This document shows, piece by piece, positions 3,678-33,681 of a stretch of DNA of 40,186 nt. Position numbers and translations under genes: made by a program. This DNA is from a virus. Taxonomy: Duplodnaviria > Heunggongvirae > Uroviricota > Caudoviricetes. The notes below the pieces were generated by a model, which was not told where the DNA came from, searched no databases, and was given only the letters and a program-made list of their open reading frames with translations. The DNA lies in the IMG/VR virus record IMGVR_UViG_2728369554_000009, positions 1 to 40,186 of that record. One strand, given 5' to 3'. Numbering within the stretch: the stretch's first letter is position 1; every line of letters starts with the position of its first letter.

Positions 3678-4495
3678 ACATACATATCCTGTTTACGTGC
3701 CCAGTCAGGGCGTTTAATAATTTCCACGCCGCCCCATTCATCATTTATGCGGCATTCGTGATAGGTATTCAGATCCCGGCGGAACAGAGCGTGCCCGGCA
3801 TCGACATCCGGCGCATCCAACTCGAACACGCGTACCGGATACCGACCACAATCAATGCTTTCGCTCACGGCAAGAAAGAAAAAACCATGCGGTTGACCAG
3901 TAACCCTCGTTGCGCCTTCGCGGTACATTGCGTCCTGCACGTGGTAGCGGAATTCCTCGATGTGGCGTGCAAAACGGTCCATATCTGCAACCTTTTTCAC
4001 GTCGACGATCACGTTGTGCTCGTTCAGCCATTTGTCTGGACGAATTCGGCACAACTCACCCGTCTCTTCATCGTTCCAGTACATTGATGCTTCGCAGTAA
4101 CCAGGTGCTTCCAACATCCAGCGTGCCGCCGGATGAGCCATTGCGCTATCACGCATGAGCTCAAGTTTTCGCCACTGCTCGACATCAAGTACCGTAATAC
4201 CCATATCCGCCACATCACGAAGAAATGCTTCTTCGTCAGCTTTACCTTGTTTTGTCCGACGATCGAATTTCGGTGACACGATGAAGCGTTTGTCGAATTC
4301 TCCAGGTTCCAGAAGCAGGCAGTGCAATGCGGTTCCCATATCCAATGCAGACTTTTTCTCTTCGTCTTCTGGTGCTGCCTGAACCCATTTAAGAAGCGCC
4401 GGATTCTTGGCAACCATGTCCAGTTGCGACTTACTCACGCCGTCACCTGCGTGGTAGTCTTCGTTGCTGATGCCGAAATAAATTCCCGGTTTCAT
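3674..4495 (-). CDS. PD-(D/E)XK (YqaJ/RecE-C-like) recombination exonuclease, partner of Bet
   Basis: 273 aa. 'DGVSKSQLD', 'EASMYW..D..GELCRIRPD' and 'IVDVKK' (D..E.K nuclease core). Coupled on both sides by 4-nt overlaps. Confidence 0.7.
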   Translation of the reverse strand: MKPGIYFGISNEDYHAGDGVSKSQLDMVAKNPALLKWVQAAPEDEEKKSALDMGTALHCLLLEPGEFDKRFIVSPKFDRRTKQGKADEEAFLRDVADMGITVLDVEQWRKLELMRDSAMAHPAARWMLEAPGYCEASMYWNDEETGELCRIRPDKWLNEHNVIVDVKKVADMDRFARHIEEFRYHVQDAMYREGATRVTGQPHGFFFLAVSESIDCGRYPVRVFELDAPDVDAGHALFRRDLNTYHECRINDEWGGVEIIKRPDWARKQDMYV

Positions 4496-5099: not shown

Positions 5100-5684
5100 T
5101 TATTGTTTGTTTTTTTCGTTCTGGCTGATGACAAATTCAATGTAACTTTCGATCTTTGCCTTCTCTGTTTCGGGTAACAATGCGTAGCGCGAGCGGTCAT
5201 AGTTGATAGTCGCAGGGTCGTGCGGGTGAATCAGTAATTCATAGCCGTGACGCCCGAATGCGGATGCAACATTCTCCAGGGTGGAAATGGAAACGCTGAC
5301 CTCATTGTTTAACAGGCGGCTGATTGTCACCTGGGCGACGCCGGATGCGCGGTGAAGTTTTCCCTGTGTTGAAAGGTAGCGGCTTTCGCTCATCCAGCGT
5401 TCCAGGTTGTGAGCCGCCAGCTGACCAATGTCGCTTGGGCCGACAGGCTGAAAACCTTCCTGAGAAAGCGAGCGATCGATATCAAGCCAGTTACGGGGTT
5501 TATTGGCGGCAGCTTCAATTTTTCGCGCAACCTGGTCGCCGATAACCTTCTTGCCAAGAGCCCAGCGGTTTACCAGATTTGCCTGAGTTCCAAGTTTTTC
5601 TGCCATCCGCGTCTGAACACCATTGAATTCACGGTCGATCAAGTCGTTGAGATTTTGCCTGCGGACGTCCTGGATACTTTTCAT
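5100..5684 (-). CDS. phage repressor, HTH protein without LexA/S24 peptidase domain
   Basis: 194 aa. 'GVQTRMAEKLGTQANLVNRWALGKK' HTH and a second HTH-like 'GVAQVTISRLL'. No Ala-Gly / Ser..Lys autocleavage motifs. Divergent from the cro-like gene, with three operators in between. Confidence 0.65.
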   Translation of the reverse strand: MKSIQDVRRQNLNDLIDREFNGVQTRMAEKLGTQANLVNRWALGKKVIGDQVARKIEAAANKPRNWLDIDRSLSQEGFQPVGPSDIGQLAAHNLERWMSESRYLSTQGKLHRASGVAQVTISRLLNNEVSVSISTLENVASAFGRHGYELLIHPHDPATINYDRSRYALLPETEKAKIESYIEFVISQNEKNKQ

Positions 5685-10538: not shown

Positions 10539-10553
10539 TTACCACAACGGTAA
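10539..10553. promoter_or_regulatory. operator TTACCACAACGGTAA fused to -10 TACTAT upstream of terminase genes
   Basis: Perfect palindrome. Same TACTAT|TACC context as the copy at 32168. Confidence 0.6.
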
Positions 10554-28874: not shown

Positions 28875-29402
28875 TCAATGGCTGTTTATGGCTTCTAAAG
28901 AAGCTTCTGCACTTATCGGCAAAGCAATAGTATCCTTGTTAGATGTGCTATTGCTTTCCAGAACTATGGAAATCCAATCCTCTTGGTTTTCATTAATTGT
29001 GCTGACAGCCATGATAGCATTCAAATCATTTTTATATATTTCTGATCGAATAAGACCTTTCCTGAATAATTTAGTTAAGTTTTCAGCTATCGACATCGCA
29101 CGAATGCTAACTTTACTAAGCTCAATTGCGTCACTACCTGCGACTTTGGCGTGTTGAGAAAGAGCCATCAAAGCTATATGTGAAAATGTTTCTTCTTTTG
29201 AAAAACCGTTACTTAAAGACATGAGTGATACACCAGCTCCGTATGGGGTGAGTTTATATCCTGATACATTCAGTGCATGCTCTACAAAGGTAAGATCATC
29301 AGTTGTAGAAACATGCATATCGTTACTTTTTTGTTTTTTTGCAATAAATAAAAAAACAAAATTAATAATCACGATGCCGACGATGATTAAGAAAACTTCC
29401 AT
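28875..29402 (-). CDS. single-pass membrane protein, superinfection-exclusion/abortive-infection candidate
   Basis: 175 aa with N-terminal TM 'VFLIIVGIVIINFVFLFIA'. AT-rich. Own operator-bearing promoter and AGGA SD. Confidence 0.5.
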   Translation of the reverse strand: MEVFLIIVGIVIINFVFLFIAKKQKSNDMHVSTTDDLTFVEHALNVSGYKLTPYGAGVSLMSLSNGFSKEETFSHIALMALSQHAKVAGSDAIELSKVSIRAMSIAENLTKLFRKGLIRSEIYKNDLNAIMAVSTINENQEDWISIVLESNSTSNKDTIALPISAEASLEAINSH

Positions 29403-29422: not shown

Positions 29423-29437
29423 TTACCTTAAAGGTAA
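29423..29437. promoter_or_regulatory. operator TTACCTTAAAGGTAA
   Basis: Perfect palindrome upstream of the membrane-protein gene. Confidence 0.6.
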
Positions 29438-29462: not shown

Positions 29463-29861
29463 TTAAGTGTATACCTCCTGCTGTTCAGTCGTGATTTTAC
29501 CCGGCAACACCTTTTTAGCTTTGCGCGGGTTAACCACATGGCCTTTAGTCCAGTACTCGTAGAGCACATCATCACACTCTTCCTGATACTGGATTACCTT
29601 ATCGCGGATTTCAGGGCGGACTTTGTTTGGACTGATGCTGTTCAACCAAGCTGCCAATTTTCGTAAAGCCATACAAATCATGGCTTGCACCCCTCCGGCA
29701 GAAGGTATGGTGATTTCCACCATACCCTTCGAGAAGCGTTGAGAAATCTTCTTATGTTGAGATTTCCAGTCTAGACCCATTCCCTCAACGATAGGTTTCA
29801 TTGGGGTGTACGGTTCGCCGTTGTGATTGACAACATAAAGTTCTACGCCGTGGAATGGCAC
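29463..29861 (-). CDS. Rha/KilA-N (ORF6N)-like antirepressor-family protein
   Basis: 132 aa from GTG. 'GVELYVVNHNGEPYTPMKPIVEGMGLDWKSQ..AMICMALRKLAAWLN'. Weak RBS. Confidence 0.45.
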   Translation of the reverse strand: MPFHGVELYVVNHNGEPYTPMKPIVEGMGLDWKSQHKKISQRFSKGMVEITIPSAGGVQAMICMALRKLAAWLNSISPNKVRPEIRDKVIQYQEECDDVLYEYWTKGHVVNPRKAKKVLPGKITTEQQEVYT

Positions 29862-30008
29862 GTTGATAGTAGTGACAAGTTTGAAACATCGCTGGTTGTA
29901 AGCCAGCAGATGCTCGTTATTTTACATCGCGGTACAATTTCTCGCTGGTGGCTCTTTTATACACCTTAACCAAATATGGTTGATTTTGATATTTATCTTC
30001 GTCTATTA

Positions 30009-30023
30009 TTACCTTTTCGGTAA
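30009..30023. promoter_or_regulatory. operator TTACCTTTTCGGTAA fused to -10 TATTAT (module A promoter)
   Basis: TTGATT-N18-TATTAT|TACC. Confidence 0.65.
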
Positions 30024-30290
30024 ATTTACATCGCACTCCTCTTGTGCCATAGTAATCGGGCACTGGCAAAATCCAGTGCCGGGATTGGTCTCCCGGATTA
30101 CTACAGAGGCACATATGCCGCATAAGCGGTTTTTTTATGTGTAAAGCGCACCTATTCTATGGTGGGCTGTGTGGGGGCACCGAAAGGTGCGCCGGGTTCC
30201 TTTGTAGCCGGTAAGACCAACTCTGCACAGTTCACCACCATCTGATTGGTCTCAGCGGTGGTGATTAACCTAACTACAAAGGTGATCGCC
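30024..30290 (+). ncRNA. conserved structured 5' leader of antirepressor A (hairpins plus internal terminator 30118..30136)
   Basis: First 95 nt are identical to the inverted copy at 33197..33103. Hairpins 30059..30080 and CCGGGA-ttggtc-TCCCGG 30079..30096. CCGC-ataa-GCGG followed by 7 T. GNRA hairpin GCACC-gaaa-GGTGC with a compensatory variant in copy B. 8-bp stem TCACCACC/GGTGGTGA. Confidence 0.5.
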
Positions 30291-30983
30291 ATGAATACCA
30301 AACCTTCCATCTTTTCCTTTGAGTCATCCTGCCAGATCCGTATGTTCATGATTGACGGAGAACCTTGGTTTGTCACCAAAGATGTGTGCAATGCTTTGAA
30401 TATTGATGTTACACAAGCGAGAAAACTTGATAAAAAAGGCTGGAACAAAAAGGGGCTGTATTCAATACAGACCCCTGGTGGAATACAAGAACTATCCATC
30501 GTTTCAGAATCAGGTCTCTACATCCTTATTCTGCGTTGCAAAGAGGCAATGACTGAGGGAACGAGAGCATTCAGATTTCTTGAATGGGTTACAGGTGAGG
30601 TTCTTCCTCAGATCCGCCGCACCGGAAGTTACATTAAAAACTCGCTCCCGCAGGAAGAACGCATAAAGATGGTTGCCGACCAGGTAGCCAACGCCACGGC
30701 GTCAGCAGTAATGCAGGCGATGAAGATAGAGAACAAAACCTACAGTGCCCCGCTGAAGCCCGGCTACCGCAGCCTGATTCATTCTCCGTCTGGTGTTCTC
30801 GGCCTGACGGAGAACTCACTGCTGATGAATCTGCTGAACCAGTTACAGGAAGACGGGCACGATGTATCGGGCGCGGCGGCGGAGCTGACCACCATGTTCT
30901 GCTACATCGTCGGTGTGAGCAAATGCCTGCGTGATATCCAGACGCACGCGGAATACATCAACGACAAGGCAGGGTTCTTCTGA
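30291..30983 (+). CDS. antirepressor A: Bro-N domain plus shared antirepressor C-terminal domain
   Basis: 'MIDGEPWFVTKDVCNALNI..ELSIVSESGLYILILRC' is Bro-N. The C-terminal 85 aa is nearly identical to the C-terminus of gene 32255..32911. SD AAGGTGA. Confidence 0.7.
   Translation: MNTKPSIFSFESSCQIRMFMIDGEPWFVTKDVCNALNIDVTQARKLDKKGWNKKGLYSIQTPGGIQELSIVSESGLYILILRCKEAMTEGTRAFRFLEWVTGEVLPQIRRTGSYIKNSLPQEERIKMVADQVANATASAVMQAMKIENKTYSAPLKPGYRSLIHSPSGVLGLTENSLLMNLLNQLQEDGHDVSGAAAELTTMFCYIVGVSKCLRDIQTHAEYINDKAGFF
30742..30983. repeat. inverted repeat arm 1, about 97% identical to rc(32255..32496)
   Basis: Direct comparison of both strands. Encodes the shared antirepressor C-domain. Confidence 0.8.
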
Positions 30984-31020
30984 CAGAACGGCGGCACAGG
31001 GACGTGCAAAACGAAACTAG

Positions 31021-31032: not shown

Positions 31033-31057
31033 CAGGCCGCTTTCGCGGCCTTGTTTT
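31033..31057 (+). terminator. intrinsic terminator after antirepressor A
   Basis: AGGCCGC-tttc-GCGGCCT followed by TGTTTTT. Confidence 0.65.
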
Positions 31058-31218
31058 TAACGAATGCCACCGCCACCCGGGCGGGAATCCGCAGAACGCC
31101 CACCGCAGCGGGAGCCGTCAGCAGCAGTGTCGCTGTCGTGCTGACAACGACCGGCAAAGGCCTGAGTTGAAGCTACCAGAGACAACAAAACGAACAGTGC
31201 AGCAAATGCTTTTTTCAT
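31057..31218 (-). CDS. small secreted Cys-containing peptide (signal peptide MKKAFAALFVLLSLVASTQAFA)
   Basis: 53 aa from the internal ATG of the 77-aa ORF. Predicted mature part is about 31 aa with 2 Cys. Confidence 0.4.
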   Translation of the reverse strand: MKKAFAALFVLLSLVASTQAFAGRCQHDSDTAADGSRCGGRSADSRPGGGGIR

Positions 31219-31299: not shown

Positions 31300-31812
31300 C
31301 TATGCAGGCTTTTTGGATTTGTACGAATAATCCCACGGATAAACATTTCTACTAAGTGGAGCTGTATTCGTTCGTTCATGAAATAATTTTGTGAAATTCA
31401 ATACGGAATCCATCCAAACTTTTGCGTTAGCTTTGGTGTGTGCGGGCGGGTCCCAATAAGCTAGTAAGGCTGCATCTCTTATTTCATTGACTGCATATAT
31501 GAGATATGCGTTACTGGTTGGTTTTGGCCTGTAATTTCCTTGTTCATCAATCAATCCATATGACCACTCATCCCAACACTGTTCAGTACATGAGTATGAA
31601 TATGATGCATATTCACCAATATTGACATGAACCTTTCTGAGATGGAAGCCTAATACTTCCTCTGGTCTTTCAAAAAGAGTATCTTTTCCCAGATCAGGAT
31701 GATGACCATGACGCCAGTGTTGTTTAAAAGCATCTTTTAGCGAAATCAGAAAGTCATCAGTTTTAAACTCACCAGTAGGTATAACCTTCCCGCTATACTC
31801 ACTCAAAAACAT
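31300..31812 (-). CDS. YafO-family toxin-like protein with N-terminal extension
   Basis: 'FHLRKVHVNIG' and 'AYLIYAVNE..AALLAYWDPPAH' align to E. coli YafO 'FERVAHIHLA' and 'AHLVYCQG..AWLLIAILKPEPH' (recalled from memory). SD GGAAGAGGA. 14-nt overlap with the upstream gene. Confidence 0.55.
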   Translation of the reverse strand: MFLSEYSGKVIPTGEFKTDDFLISLKDAFKQHWRHGHHPDLGKDTLFERPEEVLGFHLRKVHVNIGEYASYSYSCTEQCWDEWSYGLIDEQGNYRPKPTSNAYLIYAVNEIRDAALLAYWDPPAHTKANAKVWMDSVLNFTKLFHERTNTAPLSRNVYPWDYSYKSKKPA

Positions 31813-32125
31813 CGAATTCCTCTTCCTTCATATGCGTTTCTAATGAGTTAAGCTGGCGGAAAGATATCTCTTTTGATTCTGCAGATGAGAGCTTTTTTAT
31901 CCGCTTTATATTCTTTGTGATAGGAATAGACATTGTATGCACATCAGCGGATGCTCTTGGCTTTGTGCTGATAAAAATATGGCGCAATGCCGCATTTTCA
32001 CTATTGAACGAGCCAATAGCTGATTTACGTGCTACAACCTTACCAGTAAAAATACGACTCTTGCTACGCTTTGCATGAGTTCCGCTTCTTACCGGACCTC
32101 TCATCACGAATCCAAGTTTTGTCAT
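31799..32125 (-). CDS. basic 108-aa partner protein (candidate non-canonical antitoxin)
   Basis: SD GGAG 8 nt before ATG 32125. Acidic C-terminus. No similarity to Phd/YefM-type YafN. Confidence 0.45.
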   Translation of the reverse strand: MTKLGFVMRGPVRSGTHAKRSKSRIFTGKVVARKSAIGSFNSENAALRHIFISTKPRASADVHTMSIPITKNIKRIKKLSSAESKEISFRQLNSLETHMKEEEFDVFE

Positions 32126-32167
32126 CTTTAATCTCCGGTAAGTTACAGGTATAAAATAAAAACAGGT

Positions 32168-32182
32168 TTACCTTTAAGGTAA
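32168..32182. promoter_or_regulatory. operator TTACCTTTAAGGTAA overlapping -10 of TA-like operon promoter
   Basis: Minus strand: TTGCAG-N17-TACTAT|TACC. Confidence 0.65.
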
Positions 32183-32254
32183 TAGTACGCTATTCACCCC
32201 CGGTCTGCAATCTGTACAGAATTATTTAAAGGCACATCCCTGTGCCACCGCCCG

Positions 32255-32496
32255 TCAGAAGAACCCTGCCTTGTCGTTGATGTACTCCGCGTGGGTCTGG
32301 ATATCACGCAGGCATTTGCTCACACCGACGATGTAGCAGAACATGGTGGTCAGCTCCGCCGCCGCGCCCGATACGTCGTGCCCGTCGTCCTGTAACTGGT
32401 TCAGCAGATTCATCAGCAGTGAGTTCTCCGTCAGGCCGAGAACACCAGACGGCGAATGAATCAGGCTGCGGTAGCCGGGCTTCAGTGGGGCGCTGT
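32255..32496. repeat. inverted repeat arm 2
   Basis: As above. The arms flank about 1.27 kb containing the secreted peptide and the YafO-like pair. Confidence 0.8.
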
Positions 32497-32911
32497 ATTC
32501 TTTTTTGTCTTCCAGCTTGATCGCCTCCATTATGGCGGGCATGAAGCCTGACAAGACCTTCTCCACTTTTGTTTCTTGTTGTCTTAAACGTTTCTCGCAT
32601 TCAATGAAGTAGCGTCGCACCTGGCGACCTTTTTCGTTACGCTCGACCATCGCCAGCTCTTTGGCTGTATCAAGGGTGAGGTGGTACTCTTTGCGGTTGT
32701 GGCCGCCTCTACCAGATGTTTGCTTTCCCAAATTGGAAAGCAAAATATAGTCTTGATTTTCAATGAATTCGTATTCTGATATGCGATTTGTAATCCATGC
32801 TGCAAACACCTTTTTAACACCTAAAAAAGCGTGCAGATCGCGGGCATTACAAAGTAGGGCTGTTTCGTTAGATATAGTGCCGTTGAATACGGGGATGAGT
32901 TGAGCGTTCAT
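32255..32911 (-). CDS. antirepressor B: AntA/KilA-N-type N-domain plus shared antirepressor C-terminal domain
   Basis: '[29 protein letters not shown]' N-domain. C-terminal 85 aa is about 97% identical to antirepressor A. Confidence 0.7.
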
Positions 32912-33182
32912 GATGGCGTCTCCACTTAGCGAATTACATCACCACCGCTGAGACCAATCAGATGGTGGTGAACTGAACGGAGTTGGTCTTACCGGCCTAA
33001 GTGGTACCGGCGTCCTTTCGGACCCCCATTCAGCCCACCATAATTCTGGCATGACTGTGCTATACGCATAAAAAAACCACGTCTGGCGTGGTATGCGCCA
33101 CTTAGTAATCCGGGAGACCAATCCCGGCACTGGATTTTGCCAGTGCCCGATTACTATGGCACAAGAGGAGTGCGATGTAAAT
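32912..33182 (-). ncRNA. conserved structured 5' leader of antirepressor B (inverted paralogue of 30024..30290; internal terminator at 33070..33092)
   Basis: ACCACG-ccaga-CGTGGT followed by 7 U. The stem is retained despite sequence divergence from copy A. Confidence 0.5.
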
Positions 33183-33197
33183 TTACCGAAAAGGTAA
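33183..33197. promoter_or_regulatory. operator TTACCGAAAAGGTAA (module B promoter: minus strand TTGCAA-N17-TATATT|TACC)
   Basis: Perfect palindrome. Confidence 0.65.
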
Positions 33198-33228
33198 ATA
33201 TAAGCACTCCACTTGGTAATTGCAAACC

Positions 33229-33486
33229 TTATCTGGTTTGTTTTCGTAATTGTTCGGCACAATAGTCGAGATGTGTTTGCAGATCCTGCATAGACATCTG
33301 TGAGCTGGTGACGTAGTTAATCAGTGCAGTCAGTTCGGCAAGTGGGCCATCGACATTAAATCCATCCTTATCGAGATCCCGGAGTAATTTCATCAAGTGC
33401 GATCCCTCCACCAGTGACCTGACGCCTCCCGGCGTGTGAATCCTTTCGGTAAATCCGTCTTCCAGTGGATAGTGATACTGCTGCAT
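33229..33486 (-). CDS. stand-alone antirepressor C-terminal-domain protein (85 aa), LexA-controlled
   Basis: 'PLEDGFTERIHTPGGVRSLVEGSHLMKLL..DGFNVDGPLAELT..DLQTHLDY' parallels the shared C-domain '[50 protein letters not shown]'. SD GGAG. LexA box 22 nt upstream of the ATG. Confidence 0.55.
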   Translation of the reverse strand: MQQYHYPLEDGFTERIHTPGGVRSLVEGSHLMKLLRDLDKDGFNVDGPLAELTALINYVTSSQMSMQDLQTHLDYCAEQLRKQTR

Positions 33487-33507
33487 CTTATCTTCTCCAT
33501 GCAATAA

Positions 33508-33523
33508 CTGTATATTTATACAG
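33508..33523. promoter_or_regulatory. LexA (SOS) box CTGTATATTTATACAG
   Basis: Exact CTGT-N8(AT-rich)-ACAG 16-mer. Overlaps the TATAAA -10 candidate of the minus-strand gene. Confidence 0.7.
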
Positions 33524-33562
33524 TAGCAAATAATTTGTTTGCTATCCAGCACGTTTTGCAAA

Positions 33563-33577
33563 TTACCTGAAAGGTAA
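33563..33577. promoter_or_regulatory. operator TTACCTGAAAGGTAA in spacer of tailspike promoter
   Basis: TTGCAA-[operator]-TATCTA. Confidence 0.6.
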
Positions 33578-33681
33578 TATCTATTCGTATTTACAGCCTT
33601 TCTATCCATATGTGGTTTTCCAGGTAATAGAATAACCAGATATGCGGCGCAACGGGTGCTGCGACTATCTGGAGATTTAAC

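Follow-up and report, generated by a model that had tools for sequence, protein, structure and literature searches.

A pair of overlapping genes on the minus strand of a 40,186-nucleotide (nt) stretch of viral DNA (IMG/VR record IMGVR_UViG_2728369554_000009, positions 1 to 40,186, hereafter the window) raises the question of whether a temperate phage may carry a toxin-antitoxin pair that is held silent by the phage repressor and switched on at derepression. The window is a phiV10/epsilon15-like (Uetakevirus-type) prophage of Escherichia coli. The downstream gene encodes a 170-residue protein resembling the toxin YafO of E. coli K-12, and the upstream gene encodes a basic 108-residue partner. 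The best explanation of the locus as a whole, to which we assign a probability of about 60%, is a repressor-gated, antitoxin-first, type II toxin-antitoxin-like cassette that would consist of a YafO-family RNase and its antitoxin. The two minus-strand open reading frames (ORFs), with their 14-nt overlap, had been reported in an earlier note on this DNA, and both their coordinates and their description as genes are correct. The elements of the pair are as follows.

31300..31812, minus strand: putative toxin gene, encoding a 170-residue divergent YafO-family protein (RelE/ParE superfamily, presumed BECR fold); from the ORF listing and homology
31813..31829, minus strand: Shine-Dalgarno-like sequence GAAGGAAGAGGA for the toxin gene, inside the 3' end of the partner gene (translational coupling); read directly from the sequence
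31799..32125, minus strand: partner gene, encoding a 108-residue putative antitoxin, its 3' end overlapping the toxin start by 14 nt; from the ORF listing
31805..31885, minus strand: coding region of the conserved C-terminal amphipathic acidic helix of the partner (residues 81-107), the predicted toxin-binding element; from AlphaFold2 and conservation
32133..32136, minus strand: GGAG ribosome-binding site, 7 nt upstream of the partner ATG; read directly from the sequence

By its sequence relationships, the 170-residue protein is a divergent member of the YafO toxin family. On its own, it matches the Pfam family YafO_toxin (PF13957) with an expect value (E) of 7e-4 and 20.1 bits, over profile positions 7-100 of 101; BLASTP against K-12 YafO gave no significant match (E 0.55), and a YafO match was not found in a scan of NCBIfam. 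The database entry for this protein, WP_001555163.1, bears the PGAP name "type II toxin-antitoxin system YafO family toxin". The relationship is carried by the family as a whole: comparison of a 43-sequence toxin family with K-12 YafO by hhalign gave a probability of 95.9% (E 5e-9, 110 columns), and 28 of the 43 members individually match PF13957 (E <= 0.01; best 7e-23). The homologue in phage TL-2011b (33% identity, E 1e-27) lies above the Pfam threshold at 26.3 bits. The family is small: an exhaustive profile search of 1.84 billion proteins yielded 57 representatives (E <= 1e-3), and no solved structure was detectable by sequence for any relative of the toxin.

In the hhalign register, residues 19-144 of the window toxin are collinear with YafO 11-128. 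Within the 43-sequence alignment F29, G42, H62 and H125 are invariant, and D44, P50, W80, S100 and Y106 nearly so. Seven of these positions (F29, G42, H62, H125, D44, S100 and Y106) pair with YafO F25, G39, H62, H109, D41, N81 and Y88, and the conserved residues map to F25, G39/D41, H62, T80-N81-D82, Y88 and H109 of YafO. The two proteins thus have in common the motifs FG[KR]D, HxH and T[SN]D..L.Y and a histidine near the C-terminus. We know of no catalytic role for the conserved residues of the YafO family at these F, G, D, H, S/N and Y positions. The earlier note had proposed YafO homology from a few aligned motifs (FHLRKVHV/FERVAHIHL, AYLIYAV/AHLVYCQ and ...PPAH/...PEPH); the profile comparison returned YafO, and with the very same motif alignment. 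Its further proposal, an extra N-terminal region of about 40 residues, is refuted, because collinearity begins at about residue 19 of the window toxin and residue 11 of YafO. The Pfam domain begins at residue 36 in the former and residue 27 in the latter, and the 38 extra residues are accounted for by two elements: some 20 residues inserted after the HVH motif and before PTSN (roughly 66-90, including W80 and W83), and about 25 residues that form a C-terminal tail.

The partner is basic overall (21 lysine and arginine residues, isoelectric point (pI) 10.6), residues 1-80 having a pI of 12 and the last 28 residues (81-108) a pI of 4.5. It belongs to PHROG 5933 (E 2e-73), a family of unknown function, and a profile search of 5.8 billion proteins yielded about 24 clusters, all named hypothetical, from Citrobacter, Serratia, Klebsiella, Enterobacter and E. 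coli. The partner had no match in Pfam, NCBIfam or PADLOC, and its profile none in the PDB. The Phd/YefM family (PF02604) is matched by YafN, the antitoxin of K-12 YafO, and not by the partner in a Pfam scan; BLASTP found nothing in common between the partner and either YafN or the 59-residue partner in TL-2011b. No known DNA-binding domain was found in any partner variant, and a Pfam scan of the alternative variants from related loci gave no match except one sub-threshold RHH_8 (E 0.03). The picture of a basic protein with an acidic tail and without Phd/YefM features, as drawn in the earlier note, is therefore accurate. By eye, the tail of the partner (..HMKEEEFDVFE) resembles that of YafN (..DMTDDDFNDFKE); this likeness is unsupported, since hhalign gave it a probability of 0.1%, and the hidden Markov model score of -1.1 was beaten by 1037 of 2000 full shuffles and by 481 of 2000 C-terminal shuffles.

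What the partner does possess is a predicted helix at residues 81-107, modelled by AlphaFold2 with a block-mean predicted local distance difference test score (pLDDT) of 86-91, the remainder of the protein being low. The decisive evidence on the partner was supplied by the related loci. An overlapping gene precedes the toxin gene in all 32 of these (one Serratia genome and 31 viral contigs), as well as in TL-2011b and in phage EC.W1-9. The N-terminal and middle parts of the encoded partners fall into mutually unrelated types, MTKLGFVMRG-basic, MSMSKIVALIA, MHRTKRAGPN, MSTKKPLPPPP and MSIKKSLAPP, to which EC.W1-9 adds a further one (MQHLRKSEKNK), making a total of at least six unrelated forms. 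Despite these unrelated N-terminal parts, a C-terminal motif of about 35 residues is common to all partners in the alignment, and its ending (FDVFE, FDGPE or YDDAE) follows the toxin clade. Within one toxin clade, the same partner C-terminus is joined to different N-terminal parts (loci L026-L030 versus L031-L033). In the three loci for which both values were determined (L005, L019 and L020), the toxin is 69-79% identical to that of the window and the partner 32-39%.

This layout fits the usual modular organization of type II antitoxins, in which a conserved toxin-binding element is combined with an exchangeable second module. Because the type of C-terminal motif follows the toxin clade and the N-terminal parts are interchanged, we read the partner in terms of type II antitoxin logic, and the 108-residue protein is probably the antitoxin of the YafO-like toxin. 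The earlier note had allowed for "a different two-gene logic"; no sign of one was found, the C-terminal helix being conserved and co-varying with the toxin clade while the N-terminus is exchanged, and that suggestion is left without support.

The control of the pair was analyzed further from the sequence upstream of the partner gene, which contains the following elements.

32182..32210, minus strand: putative sigma-70 promoter TTGCAG-N17-TACTAT (TTGCAG at 32210-32205, TACTAT at 32187-32182), its -10 hexamer abutting the operator; from the sequence
32167..32183, no strand assigned: repressor operator ATTACCTTAAAGGTAAA, with the core TACC-N5-GGTA at 32169-32181; motif match
32221..32246, minus strand: terminator-like hairpin GGCACAGGGATGTGCC followed by TTTAAATAAT, separating the upstream antirepressor gene from the pair; from the sequence

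On the minus strand, TACTAT is followed directly by TACCTTAAAGGTA (32181-32169). The operator core is perfect, and 16 of 17 positions agree with the epsilon15 consensus ATTACC-N5-GGTAAT. The curated epsilon15 RefSeq record (NC_004775.2) contains seven sites labelled "protein_bind: repressor, lysogeny", all of them ATTACC-N5-GGTAAT, the annotation consisting of the site label only; the paper on vB_EcoP_ZX5 does not define operators. Among the 13 exact operator copies of the window, 10 abut a -10-like hexamer (at least 4 of 6 positions of TATAAT), against a background of 4%, an enrichment that is partly built in, because the AT with which the operator begins also forms the end of the -10 (two bases). 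Even so, a -10 hexamer fused to the operator is a recurrent promoter design of the phage.

The same design accompanies divergent pairs. TTGCA(N)-N17/18-TAnnAT, followed within 0-13 nt by an exact operator or one with 1-2 mismatches, was found upstream of homologous pairs in loci L019, L020, L023, L026-L030 and L035 and in EC.W1-9, and the loci that share it carry different partner N-terminal parts. In TL-2011b an operator lies about 60 nt upstream of the pair. The putative promoter of the earlier note, TTGCAG-N17-TACTAT fused to a phage operator, is thus present as described, with the same motif annotated in epsilon15 as a repressor site and the same layout recurring before divergent pairs. 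The hairpin upstream of the pair likewise recurs in related loci with compensatory changes (GGCGCAGGGAAGCGCC and others). In Serratia aquatilis (locus L005, NZ_CP173186.1), whose toxin is 69% identical to that of the window, the operator is degenerate (TACCTTTATGGTG), and no exact TACC-N5-GGTA occurs within 8.5 kb around the pair; this pair may belong to a remnant prophage or to a phage of different operator specificity.

The sole palindrome at the promoter of the pair is the operator of the phage repressor. As copies of this operator are dispersed over the genome and remain constant while the partners change, the factor that binds it would be one shared by the phage, most simply the repressor. 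Classic autoregulation, with the partner as the operator-binding protein, was rejected as the main model on the same grounds, namely the dispersal of the operator and its constancy while the N-termini of the partners change. With a copy of the phage repressor operator joined to its -10 hexamer, the pair is predicted to be off or low in the stable lysogen, and it is plausible that it is repressed there and switched on at derepression.

The presumed regulator and its sites are located in the window as follows.

5100..5684, minus strand: gene for a 194-residue helix-turn-helix (HTH) repressor, the inferred trans-acting factor for the operator (HTH_3, E 1e-9; homologue of phiV10 p40 and epsilon15 gp38)
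4967, 5029, 5741, 6126, 8095, 8157, 10540, 13805, 29424, 30010, 32169, 33184 and 33564: the 13 exact TACC-N5-GGTA sites

The number of exact sites exceeds the 0.18 expected by approximately 70-fold. Operator copies flank the repressor gene (4967, 5029, 5741, 5758 and 5789), with one exact and two one-mismatch operators in the divergent intergenic region between the repressor and cro-like genes and two more just downstream of the repressor gene. Other copies precede the replication genes and the terminase/late region (the latter at 10540, where TACTAT again abuts the site), or are found close to the tRNA region (13805), at the promoters of the two antirepressor genes and in further intergenic stretches. 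The repressor thus seems to act directly on many promoters and to silence them, which is also implied by the annotation of epsilon15. A search for repressor homologues, aimed at the divergent viral contigs, gave near-identical copies among the 80 loci listed. Its Pfam matches are confined to HTH-type families (a YdaS-like region at residues 21-61 and HTH_3 at 106-147). Because no peptidase-type domain was detected in the repressor, induction driven by the antirepressor (Ant) is plausible, and RecA-mediated cleavage is probably not the route of induction, which would instead depend on the antirepressors.

Taken together, these elements would constitute translationally coupled accessory cargo, lodged in the antirepressor region of a Uetakevirus-like prophage. 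Transcription would start from a weak sigma-70 promoter, the -10 of which is fused to the ATTACC-N5-GGTAAT operator copy, and the position of the operator and its conservation suggest that the pair would be co-expressed with the neighbouring antirepressor cassettes upon infection or derepression. The toxin, judging by homology, would be an mRNA endoribonuclease of the RelE/HigB fold that cleaves mRNA, most likely while it is translated by ribosomes, and so blocks protein synthesis. Helix 81-107 of the partner, to go by its conservation and the structure model, would bind and neutralize the toxin; the basic, largely disordered and interchangeable N-terminal 80 residues might, more speculatively, serve as a protease handle or bind nucleic acid. 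Candidate roles during lytic or early growth include shut-off of host translation, exclusion of competing phages and a fail-safe for cells in which development stalls.

Another proposal is that the pair, instead of being an addiction or abortive-infection module expressed by the lysogen, acts as a repressor-gated RNase-inhibitor device of the lytic or early phase, within the antirepressor circuit of Uetakevirus-like phages, and that derepression via Ant turns on the pair together with both antirepressor cassettes. We regard this version as tentative and on the unlikely side. Were it true, the pair would shape lytic commitment, shut off host translation or kill cells in which induction or infection has stalled, and the N-terminal variants of the partner would represent sensors or degradation handles that set the timing of toxin release.

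Several observations weigh against a repressor-gated toxin-antitoxin cassette. The 20.1 bits of the window toxin lie under the Pfam gathering threshold of 25 bits, and its structure model is of low confidence (pLDDT 60) with only moderate fold matches. The partner lacks a recognizable DNA-binding or antitoxin domain, and a fold search with its low-confidence model gave only generic beta-sheet and NTF2-like matches, which were treated as uninformative. Only 7 of 12 positions in the promoter hexamers agree with the sigma-70 consensus, and a generic promoter scan did not report the hexamers, which draw their support from the comparisons with other operator sites and other loci described above. 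Two loci, L034 and L036, have no operator at the proximal promoter, and the L005 copy is only degenerate. Finally, read-through from the upstream antirepressor gene could yield expression in the lysogen.

The last of these points bear on a conventional prophage module for toxin-antitoxin function, abortive infection or addiction, expressed constitutively in the lysogen, either because the operator is weak, partly occupied or modulatory, or through read-through. Such a pair would protect lysogens from other phages or stabilize the prophage. Most characterized prophage modules of the toxin-antitoxin and abortive-infection kinds are indeed expressed from the lysogen, the T-tract of the hairpin that follows the antirepressor gene is poor, such that termination may leak, and the proximal promoters of L034 and L036 have no abutting operator. 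Set against this are the exact or 1-2-mismatch operators positioned 0-13 nt past the -10 in 10 of the 14 divergent loci compared and in EC.W1-9, the near-perfect operator of the window itself (core intact, 16 of 17 consensus positions) and the failure of either protein to match any defence model of PADLOC-DB 2.0 (E <= 1). On balance, we consider a constitutively expressed module of this kind unlikely.

Control by the repressor operator would place expression in the lytic or early phase, and the pair is consistently embedded in the antirepressor region. Both points are in line with another alternative: the pair might be no functional toxin-antitoxin system at all, the YafO-like RNase acting as a lytic-cycle effector (host mRNA shut-off or transcript processing) and the partner as its cofactor, a specificity factor or an RNA- or DNA-binding regulator. 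The very basic N-terminal region (pI 12) and the missing antitoxin domain are in keeping with such a role. However, an antitoxin would typically show this gene order and overlap, along with rapid evolution and a conserved acidic helix at its C-terminus, and free exchange of the N-terminal part would be unexpected in a specific cofactor, which makes an effector of this kind decidedly improbable.

The sub-threshold Pfam score and the small size of the toxin family would also be compatible with a decaying remnant, in which the YafO-like protein is inactive and the upstream ORF fortuitous. We find this scarcely credible. Both ORFs are intact and co-conserved across Escherichia, Enterobacter, Serratia, Salmonella, Klebsiella, Citrobacter and Raoultella, and motif residues are invariant. 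In total, 69 of 5,426 complete E. coli genomes contain the pair (at least 80% coverage of the 1.5-kb stretch around it), and a related pair is present in the isolated phage EC.W1-9.

The repressor-gated cassette may be compared with systems already described. YafO of K-12 is a validated translation-dependent mRNA interferase that is paired with the Phd-type antitoxin YafN (PMC2814082); it belongs to the RelE/ParE BECR superfamily, and the antitoxin gene precedes that of the toxin (PMC2814082, PMC11980606). Leplae et al. listed 25 members of the YafO superfamily, with partners that were Phd-type or unknown and none of them on phages or plasmids (PMC3141249). In a 2023 survey of E. coli, 13 partner clusters were assigned to YafO_toxin, 8% of them known (PMC10790755), such that unknown YafO partners are already catalogued, none of which is known to have been characterized. 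The window pair resembles yafN-yafO (dinB-yafNOP) in the homologous, collinear toxin with FG[KR]D, HxH, T[SN]D..Y and C-terminal His positions in common, in the antitoxin-first order and in a small protein encoded upstream whose tail is acidic and aromatic. Unlike K-12 YafO, the window toxin contains the insertion and C-terminal tail noted above, and the pairwise identity is insignificant. Unlike YafN, the partner is not of the Phd/YefM type and has no profile similarity to YafN, the C-terminal tail included. Moreover, YafNO is chromosomal, whereas the window pair lies on a phage and carries a phage repressor operator. The YafNO system is linked to LexA.

Counterparts among phages are gp44/gp45 of TL-2011b and WYA78250/WYA78249 of EC.W1-9, which are likewise situated in the antirepressor region of Uetakevirus-like genomes; the TL-2011b pair occupies the same slot as that of the window, downstream of an antirepressor gene and upstream of a gene for a small secreted protein. 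Their toxins are homologous to the window toxin (33% and 47% identity, respectively), and each is preceded by an overlapping partner with the same type of C-terminal motif and by an operator near the promoter. In contrast, the partner N-termini are unrelated to that of the window, and the partners measure 59 and 139 residues, compared with 108. All three pairs are known from sequence alone. These two phages provided the only matches to the toxin among 50,697 deposited phage genomes, in which the partner had no match, and the pair is absent from phiV10 itself. Interferases of the HigB/RelE type differ from the window toxin in size (about 90-120 versus 170 residues) and have no detectable sequence similarity to it, and the gene order in HigBA is reversed relative to that of the window pair.

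What seem to be new here are a YafO-like clade nearly confined to the antirepressor region of one temperate-phage lineage, partners that combine one conserved helix at the C-terminus with shuffled N-termini, and the conserved fusion of the promoter to the repressor operator. The phage-borne clade contrasts with the YafO toxins reported hitherto, which were chromosomal only and had Phd-type partners (PMC3141249). One C-terminal helix with at least six unrelated N-termini offers a clear natural example of a modular antitoxin and a small candidate neutralizing peptide. Expression at derepression, if true, would be unusual timing for a type II pair and would tie such modules to the lysis-lysogeny circuit. 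No new principle is involved, as the toxin had already been named by PGAP and unknown YafO partners had been surveyed (PMC10790755).

The surroundings of the pair were also analyzed. The 1.5-kb stretch around it is 99.7% identical to a chromosomal segment of the avian pathogenic E. coli (APEC) strain E18055, located within a prophage that extends from integrase to lysis genes. In the window, the pair is housed in a unique segment of 1,269 nt between the arms of a large inverted duplication. The neighbouring features are listed below.

30004-30265, plus strand, and 32938-33202, minus strand: two convergent P1/P7-type immI (isrK/C4) cassettes; from Rfam
31057..31218, minus strand: gene for a 53-residue signal-peptide protein of unknown function, immediately downstream of the toxin gene (signal peptide MKKAFAALFVLLSLVASTQAFA/G...); from the ORF listing

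Each arm of the duplication is one such immI cassette, with the order operator, promoter TTTACA-17-CATAGT, c4 a1/b1 targets, isrK-like RNA, terminator, C4 antisense RNA and antirepressor gene. The Rfam scores in the two cassettes were 74.7 and 67.7 bits for the isrK-like RNA and 78.6 and 61.2 bits for C4, those of the a1/b1 targets being below threshold. The duplication and inversion of immI in a Uetakevirus-type prophage may merit separate study. The pair, lying between two C4/isrK cassettes that each contain an ant gene, invites comparison with the immI operon of P1 and P7 (c4 RNA - icd - ant). In P1, Icd and the antirepressor are presumably controlled by the primary repressor via Op51. Icd and the window toxin, which is presumably growth-inhibiting, are both located in the antirepressor region, and both are presumed to be under control of the primary repressor. 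P1 Icd, however, is a single cell-division inhibitor without a cognate antitoxin, whereas the window cassette comprises two genes, with their own promoter and a toxin of an RNase family.

A 257-nt inverted repeat, 95% complementary (30728-30984 / 32254-32510), encodes the C-terminal domain common to both antirepressors. Their N-terminal domains are Bro-N and AntA, and a third copy of the shared C-terminal domain occurs in the ORF at 33229-33609 (minus strand). The 257-nt repeat, which brackets the 1,269-nt cargo segment, could drive inversion or exchange of the cargo.

An antirepressor gene lies upstream of the pair in most of the related loci, and the gene for the 53-residue secreted protein follows the pair in about half of these. 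This protein is 84-100% conserved downstream of differing YafO-like pairs, including that of TL-2011b; its gene may be co-transcribed with the pair and is not part of the toxin-antitoxin pair itself. Two distinct YafO-like toxin genes occur together in the antirepressor region of one viral contig (L035; 1597-2055, minus strand, and 4001-4423, plus strand), one product being about 35% and the other 44% identical to the window toxin, which suggests repeated acquisition of such cassettes at the antirepressor spot.

Elsewhere in the window, a 175-residue ORF without a family match (28875-29402, minus strand) has an exact operator (29424-29436) right after a promoter-like site, and adjoins the gene for a 132-residue P22_AR_N-domain protein (29463-29861, minus strand). 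At the corresponding position, the near-identical prophage of the APEC strain contains a gene of the Arc family, so that this part of the region is mosaic.

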